Below the pieces are notes generated by a model. That model was not told where the DNA came from and did no database searches. It saw only the letters and a list, made by a program, of their open reading frames with translations. A stretch of 64,000 nt of DNA from Opitutia bacterium (GTDB taxonomy: Bacteria > Verrucomicrobiota > Verrucomicrobiia > Opitutales > Coraliomargaritaceae), in assembly GCA_029252625.1 (NCBI GenBank), contig JAQXBA010000021.1:25067-89066 (forward strand), in the 5' to 3' direction. Shown in pieces: positions 4,679-52,729 of this stretch. Both the position numbers and the translations under genes were made by a program. The number at the start of each line of letters is the position of its first letter. Positions within the stretch are counted from its first letter, which is position 1.

Positions 4679-5626
4679 TCATGCCCCAACCCTCGCATAC
4701 CACGCCAAGGCCAGCAAGCCTAGGGATAGGGCCGCGCAAGCAATTGACCAATGCTGCAAAACGAAGACCCAGCGCTGCACGCAGGCCCCCAGCAAACCGA
4801 AGACCATGCCACAGACAAATCCACTAATATGCGCGGCAACATCTACAGTGCCATCCCCCACGCCCAATAATCCCAACAAAGTCAGCCCACCGAACACAGG
4901 AATCAACCATCGTGGCAACGACAGCCGATGATATGGGTCTAAGGCGGCCGCCCAAAGACCGATCCCCGTCAACAAACCCAAGGCGCCAAACACTGCAGTC
5001 GAGGCCCCAATCGAGTAATGCTCAACTGGATAATAAACCACCGCATTGAGCACATTTCCCGCAATGCCGCTGAGCAATATTAGCAGCCAACCAGGACCTG
5101 CCCCAAAAAAGCGACAGACAAAAAACGCAAAACCCATGCCGGCAATCAAATTGGAGGCCAAGTGCACCACATCTGCGTGCAAAGTCAGCGCAGTGACCGC
5201 TCGCCACCACTGCGCACCTTGGACCATGGCCACCGAATCCGCCTGTCCCAGCGAAACAATACCGGCGCTCTCTTGCCACACAAAGCAAGCAATCAATACC
5301 CCAGCATACAGCGCGAACGACAACCAGCCAAAATCAAACTCCTGATACTCAAACAGAGCACCACCGACGCGCCGAGCCTCCAAGGCCGCGATTGCATCTA
5401 ACTCAGCGCTAACCGCTGTGTACCGATTTTCGACCACACAAATCACATAGCGCCCATCTTGCAGAATTATCCAGTACGCGTTTCCCATCGCCAAAATCGC
5501 CAGCCCAGCTTCTCCCGCTGCGACATAATCATCAAACACAGCGACTGCGGCGAGCCCCTCTTCGGGCTCAAAATCGACTAGACCCTTCAGCACCTCCTTA
5601 CTTTCTATCGCTTTCAAGCTCGCCAT
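4679..5626 (-). CDS. Rhomboid-family intramembrane serine protease with an N-terminal soluble domain
   Basis: WWRAVTALTLHADVVHLASN, catalytic IGASTAVFG, and VAAHISGF. Confidence 0.9.
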   Translation of the reverse strand: MASLKAIESKEVLKGLVDFEPEEGLAAVAVFDDYVAAGEAGLAILAMGNAYWIILQDGRYVICVVENRYTAVSAELDAIAALEARRVGGALFEYQEFDFGWLSFALYAGVLIACFVWQESAGIVSLGQADSVAMVQGAQWWRAVTALTLHADVVHLASNLIAGMGFAFFVCRFFGAGPGWLLILLSGIAGNVLNAVVYYPVEHYSIGASTAVFGALGLLTGIGLWAAALDPYHRLSLPRWLIPVFGGLTLLGLLGVGDGTVDVAAHISGFVCGMVFGLLGACVQRWVFVLQHWSIACAALSLGLLALAWYARVGA

Positions 5627-45848: not shown

Positions 45849-46171
45849 TCCAGGCAATTGTGAAAGAGGGGCCCAGAGCAGTCGCTTTCTTCTTTAGGTT
45901 CATCGTCGACTAATGGGTAAAGAAGGAAGGGCCACTCGCTCTTCTTTACTTTCACACTGGATCAATGTGGGCGAGTCGCCCACATTTTTATCGGCCATCT
46001 CAAGAGACTGTCCCTAAAAGCACACTTGCAATCTTAATGAACCGAAAAGATCAAACGATGCATACTAAGCAAAAACCGAATGAGTGCCGGCGAGCACCGG
46101 AAGGTCCTCGGCTCCAAGCAAGCGATTAGAATTGCCCCCTTCAAGCATAACGACACCTTTACTGGCGTTTC

Positions 46172-49419: not shown

Positions 49420-49452
49420 AAGCCTCGGCATTTACACGCCGAGGCTTTTTTT
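49420..49452 (+). terminator. Intrinsic terminator after glgE
   Basis: AAGCCTCGGC-atttacac-GCCGAGGCTT-TTTTT. Confidence 0.85.
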
Positions 49453-49454
49453 GG

Positions 49455-49707
49455 TTTATTCTCAGCTTAGAGAATGGCATTGATATATTTAGGGAGCGTT
49501 GAATTTGCTTTTGCGCATGGGAGGGACGAGCTACGTGTCGTACGGTACCGATGCGTAAGAGTCAGACAGAATTATCAGCCTTTTGAGACTCCTGGATTTT
49601 CATGCCGTCGCTAAAGTGCCCGCGGTCGACTCGGAAGTCGAGTCTCCCCAATAGAATACCCATACCATTAGGGGCAGTATAGCATCTCCGCGGGAAATGA
49701 CGATTAA
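49455..49707. mobile_element. MITE/REPIN-like element, older copy A
   Basis: Aligns end to end with 51752-52006 (about 75-80% identical by manual alignment). It is flanked by CTTTTTTTGG on the left and CTTTTTTTGTGG on the right, consistent with an eroded 12-bp target duplication. Confidence 0.75.
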
Positions 49708-49857
49708 CTTTTTTTGTGGCAAGAAACACCCCTGTCTCACGACGGAGTCTACCGCAGACCTGACGCGATTCAATACCTGCACGCAGTCGTAAGAACGGAG
49801 AGTTATCTGGATATTTTATAGTAGCTCTAGCCCTCCAGATCAGTTTAGCTCCTCGCA

Positions 49858-50298: not shown

Positions 50299-50375
50299 AA
50301 AAAAAGCGCCGTCCCTTTCGAGACGACGCTTTTTCCAAACAACAAACTAATAAAACCTAAACAATATGATTATAT
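50299..50375 (-). ncRNA. Candidate small RNA, copy 1 (~77 nt)
   Basis: Preceded by TTTTGAACG-N16-GTCTA. It contains GUUUGUUGUUUG and ends in an 11-bp GAAA-tetraloop hairpin plus 7 U. It has no ORF, and a paralog lies at 50946-51020. Confidence 0.6.
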
Positions 50376-50380
50376 AAAGA

Positions 50381-50410
50381 TAGACGGACCAATGGCCCAA
50401 ACGTTCAAAA
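50381..50410 (-). promoter_or_regulatory. ECF/sigmaE-type promoter of sRNA copy 1
   Basis: GAACGT-N16-TCTAT matches the RpoE/AlgU-type GAACTT-N16-TCTnA layout. Confidence 0.55.
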
Positions 50411-50465
50411 TAGTTTTATTTTTTTAATTAAATGCTGAAAGCGCGCATCTGCGCCTCATCAGCCC

Positions 50466-50831
50466 CTATAGCTCAGTATACTTAATACTTCGCCCGCGGG
50501 CTTTCTCGACTGGATATTTTTCTGCATTACGCTGCATTTTCGCCTCAATAATCGCCGCAATGTTAATTCCAGTGACGTTAGCGAACTCAATTGCGAAGAT
50601 AAATACGTCCGCCAACTCCTCCTCAACCTTTGCACGCAGCTTGGTCACCTCGACATCAGTGTGTGACTGATCTGGGCTCTGCCAGAGGAAGTGCTCCATT
50701 AACTCGGCCGCCTCTGCCGAAATCGCCATCGAAAGATTCTTGGGACTGTGGAATTGCTCCCAATCTCTCTCCTTGGCGAAAGCTAGCACACGATCTTTGA
50801 TTTCCTGTAGGCGAGTCTCAGCGTCATTCAT
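50466..50831 (-). CDS. MazG-like nucleotide pyrophosphohydrolase (dCTP pyrophosphatase-like)
   Basis: ERDWEQFHSPKNLSMAISAEAAELMEHFLW...EELADV...KMQRNAEKYP. Confidence 0.92.
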   Translation of the reverse strand: MNDAETRLQEIKDRVLAFAKERDWEQFHSPKNLSMAISAEAAELMEHFLWQSPDQSHTDVEVTKLRAKVEEELADVFIFAIEFANVTGINIAAIIEAKMQRNAEKYPVEKARGRSIKYTEL

Positions 50832-50945
50832 ATGCAGGATCAATAGGCACTGCTGAGCAAGCTATCAATGGTGAAATAGGCCGAGATCGCCAGACTTCCC
50901 TATTGCACCTCTTCACACCTATGCGGAGATAGCCACTCGCTACAT

Positions 50946-51020
50946 AAAAAGGCGCCGACTCTTTCGAGACGACGCCTTTTACAAACAACAAACACATGAA
51001 AAATCTAATTAAGATTATAT
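50946..51020 (-). ncRNA. Candidate small RNA, copy 2 (~75 nt)
   Basis: Same promoter boxes, same 5' end AUAUAAUC, same GUUUGUUGUUUG core and a homologous GAAA-tetraloop terminator as copy 1. Confidence 0.6.
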
Positions 51021-51025
51021 ATAGA

Positions 51026-51055
51026 TAGACGTGCTAGTGGCCAAAGCGTTCAAAA
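51026..51055 (-). promoter_or_regulatory. ECF/sigmaE-type promoter of sRNA copy 2
   Basis: TTTTGAACG-N16-GTCTATCT; the boxes are conserved with copy 1 while the spacer has diverged. Confidence 0.55.
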
Positions 51056-51277
51056 TACTTTCAGTTTTTTCTACCAAATTTCGAACTACGCCAAAATAGC
51101 GCCCAAGGCCTTGCTTATGAGTGACTTTATAATGCGCCACTTCAGCCGCCGGAAAATGCAAGCCGCCTGTTCTGCTACTGGCAGGCTGAACGCGGACCCT
51201 GCCGAACGCATCAATGAATTCCTCAACACCCCGTTTACAATGCGTGGAGCTTTGTTATCCTTATAGCTACGCCCCCT

Positions 51278-51727
51278 ATGACTGCCCTGACAGATTGGAT
51301 ACAACGCAAGGAACAACTGCTACAGCTGCTCGGCAGCCTCTCGCTGCTCCTACTTACACTCACCCTCGCCGCTCTGGTGCTGGTAGTGATCACCCTGCCC
51401 GATAATTACTTCACTCGCGATCATCGCGCTCCGACCAGCCTCACACACCCACATCCACTACCCTGGCGAGGGTTATCACTGCTAAAAAATCTACTCGGCA
51501 TCCTCTTTATTTTCCTTGGAATAGCGCTGCTGGTCCTGCCCGGGCAAGGCGCACTCACCATCCTGGTCGGTCTGACACTAACCAACTTCCCCGGTAAATA
51601 TCGCCTCGAACGGCGCATGATGCGCCAATCGGTGATCCATAAATCGCTCAACAAAATCCGCACCATGGCGAATAAGCCGCCACTAAAAGTACCAGTGCAG
51701 CAAACGCCGGTAGCAAATCGACGATAA
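51278..51727 (+). CDS. PGPGW-domain membrane protein
   Basis: GIALLVLPGQGALTILVGL (a PGPGW-like motif) followed by FPGKYRLE. Confidence 0.75.
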   Translation: MTALTDWIQRKEQLLQLLGSLSLLLLTLTLAALVLVVITLPDNYFTRDHRAPTSLTHPHPLPWRGLSLLKNLLGILFIFLGIALLVLPGQGALTILVGLTLTNFPGKYRLERRMMRQSVIHKSLNKIRTMANKPPLKVPVQQTPVANRR

Positions 51728-51751
51728 AAATATTGGCAGCTCCATTTTAGC

Positions 51752-52006
51752 TTCATCGTCGATTAGCGGGGAAGGCATTGATATATGTTGGGACCGTTGA
51801 ATGTGCTTTTTGCTCTTGGGAGGGACGACCTCCGTGTCGTCCGATACCGATGCGTGAGAGTCTGACAGGATGATCAGCTCTTGGAGACTTCTAGATTTCC
51901 ATGCGGCTTCTAAAGTGCTCGTGGTCGACACGGAGGTCGACCCTCCCCGGCAAAATAGCCGCTCCATTAGGCGGAGATTAGTATCTCCCCAGTAATCGAC
52001 GAAGAA
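51752..52006. mobile_element. MITE/REPIN-like element, intact copy B (255 bp)
   Basis: Perfect 12-bp direct repeat CTCCATTTTAGC at 51740-51751 and 52007-52018. The 21-bp terminal inverted repeats match at 18/21. It carries an internal inverted REP pair at 51818-51842 and 51923-51947. Confidence 0.85.
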
Positions 52007-52031
52007 CTCCATTTTAGCCCTGCAGCGTGAA

Positions 52032-52469
52032 TTAGCTGTGATTGTCACAGTCTTTACACACGCCGTAAACTTCCATTACGTGCGTAATCTGCGAGTAACC
52101 ATGCGCCTTTGCCCGCCCAAGCACTTCTTTGCCGACGCAGAGGTCCAAGCGCTCGGCTTGATGGCACTCGCGACAAATTAGATGATGGTAATGCTCGCCG
52201 GGAGCAGTCAGCTCGAAAAGTTGTGTGCCATTTTCTAGCGGGATGCGTTGAACGGCACCGATGCCATGCAGTGCCTCCAAGTTGCGATACACTGTCACGA
52301 GGTCAGTTTCCGCTAGCCCTGCGCTCTGCCGAATTTTGTCCGCACTCGCTGGATGGTCGAATTGGGTTAAGGCTCGGACGATACGGATTCGCTTTTGGGT
52401 GATTCGCCCCCCCTCTGCACGCATCCGCTCGAGGATGGTCTCTATCAAACTGTCGGGGGCAGAATTCAT
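52032..52469 (-). CDS. Fur/Zur/PerR-family transcriptional regulator
   Basis: RITQKR, LVTVYRNL, HYHHLICRECH and YGVCKDC (two CxxC motifs). The start was moved to the ATG at 52469. Confidence 0.9.
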   Translation of the reverse strand: MNSAPDSLIETILERMRAEGGRITQKRIRIVRALTQFDHPASADKIRQSAGLAETDLVTVYRNLEALHGIGAVQRIPLENGTQLFELTAPGEHYHHLICRECHQAERLDLCVGKEVLGRAKAHGYSQITHVMEVYGVCKDCDNHS

Positions 52470-52510
52470 GGTAACTATACTGCTAGGACTGCATTCAGGT
52501 TCAAGTTCAT

Positions 52511-52729
52511 TCACTCCCCATATTGTGCTACACTGCAATCTGTCAGTGCGGTCACCGAAGGAAAATAAGTTGGGTTTGCCATTGTAATGTAGACTTAAGC
52601 ATTTGCTGAACCCAGCGTATTTGAGTGGTAATGAGCCCACATATCAATGCCGCCTATAAGTAGACAGAATATGAACGGAATTTATATGCCCACCAGGATC
52701 CCTTTTGAATGAAATATATTCTCTTCCAT
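52511..52729 (-). pseudogene. Possible decayed small membrane or exported protein gene (or a 15-aa peptide)
   Basis: Perfect AAGGAGG 7 nt before the ATG at 52729. The frame reads MEENIFHSKGILVGI*IPFIFCLLIGGIDMWAHYHSNTLGSANA*VYITMANPTYFPSVTALTDCSVAQYGE*. Confidence 0.3.

Follow-up and report, generated by a model that had tools for sequence, protein, structure and literature searches.

Positions in this report refer to the window, by which we mean the whole stretch of 64,000 nucleotides that was analysed (C169:25067-89066 of a draft genome of 3.03 Mb in 219 contigs). Two convergent genes, one for a PGPGW membrane protein (51278-51727, forward strand) and one for a Fur-family regulator (52032-52640, reverse strand), would be separated by a spacer of 37 nt were this spacer not occupied by the element described here. 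A perfect direct repeat of 12 bp, CTCCATTTTAGC (12/12), stands at 51740-51751 and again at 52007-52018, and between its two copies lie 255 bp (259 bp if the 2-nt tips are counted) that begin TTCATCG and end CGAAGAA. Read according to the pattern of its family, N8-GG[element]CC-N8, the element extends from 51750 to 52008 on the forward strand, and the core of each 12-bp repeat is an 8-bp target-site duplication, CCATTTTA, at 51742-51749 on the left and at 52009-52016 on the right (8/8). The terminal inverted repeats, TTCATCGTCGATTAGCGGGGA (51752-51772) and TCCCCAGTAATCGACGAAGAA (51986-52006), are 21 nt long and 86% complementary; with the tips included, the left repeat reads GC-TTCATCGTCGATTAGCGGGGAAGG (51750-51775, forward), GC standing for the consensus GG, and the right repeat reads ...TCCCCAGTAATCGACGAAGAA-CT (51986-52008, reverse), CT standing for CC. 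Farther in is a second inverted pair, formed by GGGAGGGACGACCTCCGTGTCGTCC and its near reverse complement, with arms of 25 nt that are 92% complementary and 80 nt apart. Each arm is a REP-like hairpin: the first (51818-51842, forward) reads GGGAG-GGACGAC-CTCCGT-GTCGTCC, and the second, inverted (51923-51947, reverse), has the stem variant GGTCGAC/GTCGACC.

The first-pass annotation of this DNA had described a 255-bp element with IS-like ends, a 12-bp repeat and an inner pair, nested as a palindrome, and every one of these features is present at 51740-52018. The palindromy is far above chance. Aligned with its own reverse complement, the element scores 139, against 21 +/- 15 for shuffled sequences (maximum 71.5, n=200), while its predicted folds have z-scores of -5.2 and -7.3, and 0 of 200 shuffles fold equally well. 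Pfam returned no match for the open reading frame that spans the element, and Rfam returned none at the gathering threshold across the window, nor at E <= 1 over 51650-52100. The PGPGW gene closes with the codons GCAAATCGACGATAAA (51713-51728), 88% complementary to the left end of the element 24 nt downstream. A 9-mer at the 3' end of the same gene, AATCGACGA, resembles the right inverted repeat and was considered as a possible cue for targeting. The stretch lines up position by position with the coding sequence of the congener, and the resemblance is probably due to chance.

The element belongs to a family of which its own genome holds about 11 full-length copies, 71-93% identical, and two partial ones. 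Among the draft assemblies searched, 14 of 23 congeneric genomes contain matches to the focal element, one of them (G001) about 25 copies, and 0 of 18 genomes that represent other genera within the family or order contain any; over these 23 congeners and 18 outside genomes, the family is confined to a single genus. A further full-length copy had been reported 2.3 kb away in the window, and it is indeed found at 49453-49708 (forward strand), 78% identical to the focal element and, like it, a member of what we call subfamily F1. This older copy has a degenerate left end, however, and its flanks are T-tract repeats (CTTTTTTT) with no 12-bp repeat among them; it lies directly 3' of the terminator hairpin and T-tract of glgE (49420-49452). 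When the focal locus was searched together with its flanking genes, precise empty sites were found in four congeners (G020, G009, G007 and G005), where the alignments of the left and the right flank abut with an overlap of 9-10 nt, which means that the target sequence is present there once, as in GAC-TCATTTTAGC-CCCGCAG of G020. The focal insertion, with an empty site in all congeners examined, is recent and lineage-specific. The search for further copies and that for empty sites in relatives, both of which the first-pass annotation had recommended, have thus each returned a positive answer.

A search for the pattern of the termini across the genus yielded an inverted pair 1.3 kb apart in one near-complete congener, G019. 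The pair bounds a parent-type insertion sequence (IS) of 1301 bp (G019:C1:2084395-2085695) with the ends GGTTCATCGTCGATTACCGGGGAATGCAT and ...CCCGGTAATCGACGATGAACC, the sequence AAAAAAAA on both flanks, and an open reading frame for a protein of 398 aa in which Pfam recognizes DDE_Tnp_ISL3 (6.9e-67), HTH_Tnp_ISL3 (2.2e-14) and Zn_ribbon_ISL3 (1.7e-7). The terminal sequence GGTTCATCGTCGATTAsCGGGG is common to this IS and to the focal element, which agrees with the IS in 25 of 27 nt at the left end and in 20 of 22 nt at the right. Beyond these 27 + 22 terminal nt, the interior has no likeness to the IS of G019. Since the ends are all that the two have in common, the focal element consists of ISL3 ends around a foreign interior and is not a deletion derivative; a simple internal deletion of a known IS, which had been named beforehand as an outcome that would undo the hybrid reading, can be set aside. 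By the same comparison, the proposal that the element is non-autonomous, has ends of IS type and owes its target duplication to a DDE enzyme is borne out, the transposase with the same termini that it called for being the ISL3-family protein of G019.

Relatives of the 398-aa transposase occur in a Coraliomargarita MAG (72%), in Pelagicoccus mobilis (73%), in an Opitutaceae MAG (66%) and in two Vibrio species (54%), and where the ends of their elements are visible (the Coraliomargarita MAG and Vibrio), these start with GGTTCATCG and have 8-bp A/T duplications. To judge from these named relatives, the host probably belongs to the marine Opitutales. Within the genus, the cognate transposase is intact in G019 only, and two short remnants of it are left, in G007 and G009. 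The genome of the focal element contains a second, unrelated ISL3-family element (C173:1616-3210), with a transposase of 473 aa, the ends GGTTCTTCACGGAAGTGCGTTTT and an 8-bp duplication, AGGTTTT(T). We rejected it (C173:1676-2770) as the partner of the focal family, because its transposase is 31% identical to the protein of G019 and its ends, GGTTCTTCACGGAAGTGCG, are different. The cognate transposase is absent from the focal genome, and the copies that remain there are probably now immobile relics.

The inner hairpins have a life of their own. The 25-mer of the focal hairpin occurs 62 times in the genome at <= 4 mismatches, where about 0.005 occurrences would be expected by chance, and 40 of these copies lie outside the MITEs; of the 40, 31 fall outside open frames of >=200 aa, as compared with 17% of random sites. 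Seven inverted pairs of this REP, which we label class GGGAGGGACGAC, have gaps of 18-45 nt, a REPIN-like arrangement. In the alignment of the 7-bp stem, 96.3% of the cells are paired and 29 cells are changed on both sides, at 4 of the pairs, a result matched by 0 of 500 shuffles. Congeners without the MITE, such as G006 and G018, have only short REP-sized matches of about 28 nt. Taken together, the 40 copies outside the MITEs and the REP-sized matches in the MITE-less congeners establish that the REPs exist without the outer ends, a point that the first-pass annotation had proposed to check (40 of the 62 copies); conversely, the outer ends occur without the focal REPs, in other subfamilies. 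The inner units are a REP-like family and a genuine dispersed repeat.

The name REPIN is not established for them. The conserved 5' extension of the focal REP is GGGAGG, in place of the GTAG or CGTC tag by which such repeats are defined (PMC3733652), and other REP classes in the same genome do bear GTAG. The search for a RAYT gene with the focal REP on its flanks came up empty: in the focal genome, the Y1_Tnp loci have other REP classes or none, and at <= 6 mismatches the focal REP is in 0 of 34 scanned Y1_Tnp loci, including the 30 best of the genus (in draft assemblies). The REPIN/RAYT connection drawn in the first-pass annotation is thus unproven, no such gene having turned up in the own genome or at those 30 best loci, and nothing points to an HUH enzyme as the mover of the element. 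A GGAG-CGTGGGCGACCCGCCCACG pair stands before one Y1_Tnp gene, at C56. Two further RAYT-like genes (C118:6089-6688 and C138:17520-18068) have on both sides GTAG-type REP arrays of their own (CGTAGTGCGCCGC... and CGTAGCGACTGG...), from which it follows that the genome holds at least 4 REP classes. There is also a multi-copy protein family, its members about 330 aa long and IS200-like in their N-terminal Y1_Tnp domain (C70:1961-2971, C214 at about 5041-5235, C164:3-998 and C34:4357-4968 in the focal genome); this family reaches 10-18 copies in some congeners, has none of the REP classes seen here on its flanks and looks unlike the single-copy RAYTs.

We therefore consider it highly probable that the focal element is a MITE, a non-autonomous element that retains of an ISL3-family IS only the terminal inverted repeats of about 25 nt. 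Copies would be mobilised in trans by an ISL3 DDE transposase that binds the two ends, and a staggered cut of 8 bp in the target would be repaired into the duplication. The interior would be foreign DNA and not part of the IS, its inverted pair of a genome-wide REP-like hairpin having presumably been captured once, in the ancestor of the subfamily. Of the two options put forward in the first-pass annotation, we prefer the first, a MITE by which a REP pair was captured. On the side of the MITE stand ends that match an IS, a DDE partner of the ISL3 family, an 8-bp duplication, and a small, non-coding, multi-copy form with presence/absence polymorphism. On the side of the REP stand a compensated GC-rich palindrome and dispersed, mainly extragenic copies that include inverted pairs; of two further marks of REP/REPIN systems proper, a flanking RAYT was not found for the focal class at the loci scanned, and the GTAG/CGTC tag is missing from it. 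Besides the deviant tips of the focal copy, two points sit less easily with this reading. An intact cognate transposase is known from G019 alone, so that mobilisation in trans is something we infer, and a single capture does not explain why the REP pair should be as conserved as the ends.

The second of these points deserves attention, and it brings in the relatives of the focal subfamily. Six copies of a subfamily with ISL3-type ends, F2, are found in the focal genome, and one that is complete, having a duplication as well as its two ends, in G014. One of the six is in the window at about 45897, a third related element there that is absent from the earlier annotation: its left part (45897-46015, forward) has the left end GGTTCATCGTCGACTAATGGG as in F1, followed by a REP pair of another class, GGGCCACTCGCTC / TGTGGGCGAGTCGCCCACA. 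A third subfamily, F3, is an element of about 125 bp (C31:11885-12012). The REP class that F2 and F3 carry, GGAGGGCGACTCGCCCTCC / TGTGGGCGAGTCGCCCACA, differs from that of F1 and is the one that precedes the RAYT gene at C56. A fourth type (C77) has ISL3-type ends and neither REP class. We also observed further elements with the same ends (locus L075, 331-703, on G001:C114, and C46:3051-3400 of the focal genome) that contain inverted GCCTCCGTGTGA / TCACACGGAGGC motifs, the core of which, CCTCCGTGT, is the loop region of the focal REP; a binding motif may be shared between the focal REP loop and these elements.

Within the focal subfamily, the alignment columns are conserved at 98% in the REPs, at 90-93% in the ends (93% in the left one) and at 82-90% in the spacers. 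It is thus possible to suppose that the REP-like pair is not passive cargo but is needed for the propagation or the retention of the element, which would make a REPIN-like core on DDE ends a functional hybrid. In favor of this, F1 has two deep sub-lineages whose consensus sequences differ at 0 of 50 positions in the REPs and at 1 of 49 in the ends, against 16 of 42, 16 of 80 and 4 of 38 in the spacers (10-38%). Changes shared by a lineage are about 18-fold depleted in the REPs and private changes are not significantly so (p = 0.14), which suggests that constraint acts on propagating lineages and not on copies once they are inserted. Changes of the shared kind are inherited, however, and few in number, so that they are not independent events and the p-value attached to them is not a real probability. 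The two stems, GACGAC/GTCGTC in REP1 and GTCGAC/GTCGAC in REP2, are kept distinct throughout, and both differ from the commonest solo variants. Gene conversion is unlikely as the cause of the conservation, because REP1 and REP2 retain these distinct, mutually compensated, A/T-swapped stems across subfamilies, and the REPs, being ancestral to the family and conserved, were not added later at random, which had been the other way for the hybrid reading to fail.

That F2 and F3, with the same ISL3 ends, hold pairs of another REP class, and one which flanks a RAYT gene at C56, likewise speaks for a functional pair. The pair might allow the DNA to fold back and join the ISL3 ends, might hold up the replication or transcription of the donor site, or might serve as the substrate of a second enzyme. 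Against it, the autonomous IS has no such hairpins, and so the transposase itself does not need them; the C77 type does without both REP classes; no RAYT is flanked by the focal REP, either in the focal genome or at the 34 Y1_Tnp loci; and REPs and this IS both gather just 3' of genes, so that their co-occurrence may in part reflect a shared niche. We accordingly regard a pair that the element needs as unlikely, if worth stating. The broader form of the same idea, in which REP-like pairs are a functional module of a superfamily of ISL3-derived MITEs comprising three subfamilies with an inverted REP pair each and two REP classes among them, is in our judgment equally doubtful. Were it true, REPIN-type repeats could switch from being spread by HUH/RAYT enzymes to hitch-hiking on a DDE transposase or, alternatively, pairs of GC-rich hairpins would promote the transposition or the retention of ISL3 MITEs.

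Returning to the MITE with a captured REP pair, we compiled the flanks of 28 full-length copies from five genomes, which have the consensus architecture N8-GG[TTCATCG...GATGAA]CC-N8. The 8-bp duplications are in register and perfect (8/8) in 5 of the 28 copies (TTTTAAAA, TTTTATTT, TAAAAAAC, TCTTTTTT and CCATTTTA of the focal copy) and agree in 7 of 8 positions in a further 6; most of the remaining copies have T-tracts, in which a slip of one base restores identity. GG forms the left tip in 23 of the 28 copies and CC the right tip in 19, leaving 5 deviant on the left and 9 on the right. Read as 12-mers, the flanks agree 12/12 in the focal copy only and at <= 10/12 in every other copy, and it is the outer positions that disagree, which is what one would expect of an element with GG and CC as its tips. 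The target duplication of ISL3-family elements is 8 bp long (as is known from ISfinder), and those of three full ISL3 elements (AAAAAAAA, AGGTTTT(T) and AAAAAGAA) fit this length. A 12-bp duplication, which the first-pass annotation had proposed to look for in all copies, is thus rejected as the rule of the family: family-wide, the value is 8 bp with GG/CC tips. In the focal copy, the tips GC and CT, in place of GG and CC, equal the bases beside the 8-bp target (CT-CCATTTTA-GC), which brings the agreement to 12/12. Most simply, then, the 12-bp repeat is the usual 8-bp duplication extended by two deviant tip nucleotides per side that match the flanks of the target, even if the chance that both tips deviate precisely so as to lengthen the repeat to 12/12 is, by a rough estimate, <1% per copy.

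One might instead hold that the focal insertion made a true 12-bp duplication, the element having been cut 2 nt inside each end by a transposition chemistry that is atypical of, or different from, that of its family. A repeat that is perfect over 12 of 12 positions would then call for no substitution, and an insertion so recent that all examined congeners have the empty site leaves little opportunity for later mutation of both tips. But 8 bp with GG/CC tips suits all the other copies as well as the full IS and two further ISL3 elements, the tips stray from GG and CC in 5 and 9 of the 28 copies in any case, and two simultaneous anomalies would be needed, one in the position of cleavage and one in its stagger. 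We judge this very improbable. For annotation, the consequence is that a "12-bp duplication" is no basis on which to infer the transposase family here, the family-wide value being 8 bp.

Most copies lie immediately 3' of a GC-rich hairpin, the duplicated A/T-rich 8-mer being the T-tract of that hairpin. Because it is the T-tract that is duplicated, the terminator remains intact, and insertion at such sites is plausibly harmless. In 18 copies the T-rich strand is on the side of the left end, against 4 with the opposite arrangement (p = 0.004), an orientation bias that could reflect either target recognition or selection on read-through RNA. That the family consists of genes for structured non-coding RNAs, with the terminal stem and the T-tracts as features of the RNA, strikes us as hardly credible, for while the folds predicted for either strand are very stable and the copies show an 18:4 bias in how they face the T-tract of the upstream terminator, the target duplications vary, the empty sites are precise, the ends are identical to those of an IS that encodes a transposase, Rfam gives no match even at E <= 1 and the spacers diverge freely.

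As a MITE with a captured REP pair, the focal element can be set beside several known systems. The ISL3 elements themselves (the IS of G019 and its relatives in Coraliomargarita, Pelagicoccus and Vibrio) have the same terminal repeats, an 8-bp A/T-rich duplication and sites beside terminator T-tracts or A-tracts; the focal element is distinguished from them by having no transposase gene and an unrelated interior. With the Correia, ERIC and RUP MITEs (PMC10969869, PMC3184786), it shares shortness, inverted ends, a duplicated target, multiple intergenic copies, a long hairpin and, presumably, mobilisation in trans by the transposase of an IS, but its parent is an ISL3 element, its host appears to be a marine verrucomicrobium of Opitutales type, and its interior contains a conserved pair of a REP-like repeat that is also dispersed on its own. 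The inner units resemble the REPs, REPINs and BIMEs associated with RAYTs (PMC3116915, PMC2817692) in being GC-rich imperfect palindromes of 25 nt with compensated stems, in their dozens of mostly extragenic copies, and in forming inverted pairs 18-45 nt apart as well as arrays. They differ in that no flanked RAYT was found for the focal class and that the 5' tag is GGGAGG, not GTAG or CGTC; moreover, the two units in the MITE are separated by 80 nt and travel together with ends of DDE type and a target duplication. Small repeats of composite or nested structure have been described as well, among them BIMEs, the pneumococcal clusters in which BOX, RUP and SPRITE elements insert into one another, and a MITE of Porphyromonas gingivalis that contains a minisatellite (PMC10969869, PMC3184786, PMC4596501). 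The focal element is composite in the same sense, and in G009 its inner part has been expanded into tandem arrays; unlike those composites, it has its nested unit fixed at one position throughout the family and conserved as strongly as the ends. A limited literature search found no description of a MITE family with a fixed REP pair as conserved as its ends.

What the analysis provides, for a little-studied marine genus of verrucomicrobia, is a MITE family documented in full, with its parent IS, its empty sites, its preference for T-tracts and its orientation bias. Small bacterial repeats fall mainly into MITEs driven by DDE enzymes and REP/REPINs, two classes whose mechanisms are normally regarded as separate; should the REP pair aid mobility or retention, this family would link them.

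Two minor observations concern other repeats. The tandem arrays of G009 (L142-L145; C20:1915-2776, C20:18378-19266, C29:75539-77083 and C23:22624-24087) amplify the REP-bearing inner part of the MITE and also a REP in another context, with periods of 57, 77, 180, 202 and 389 bp, units that are 87-98% identical, and 3.5 to 9 copies. In the window, two intergenic copies of a repeat of about 120 nt (50300-50425 and 50946-51070), 82-86% identical and 645 bp apart, bracket a MazG-like gene (50466-50843, reverse strand), and each of them comprises an A/T-rich stretch and a hairpin that resembles a terminator (AAAAAGCGCCG...CGACGCTTTTT).
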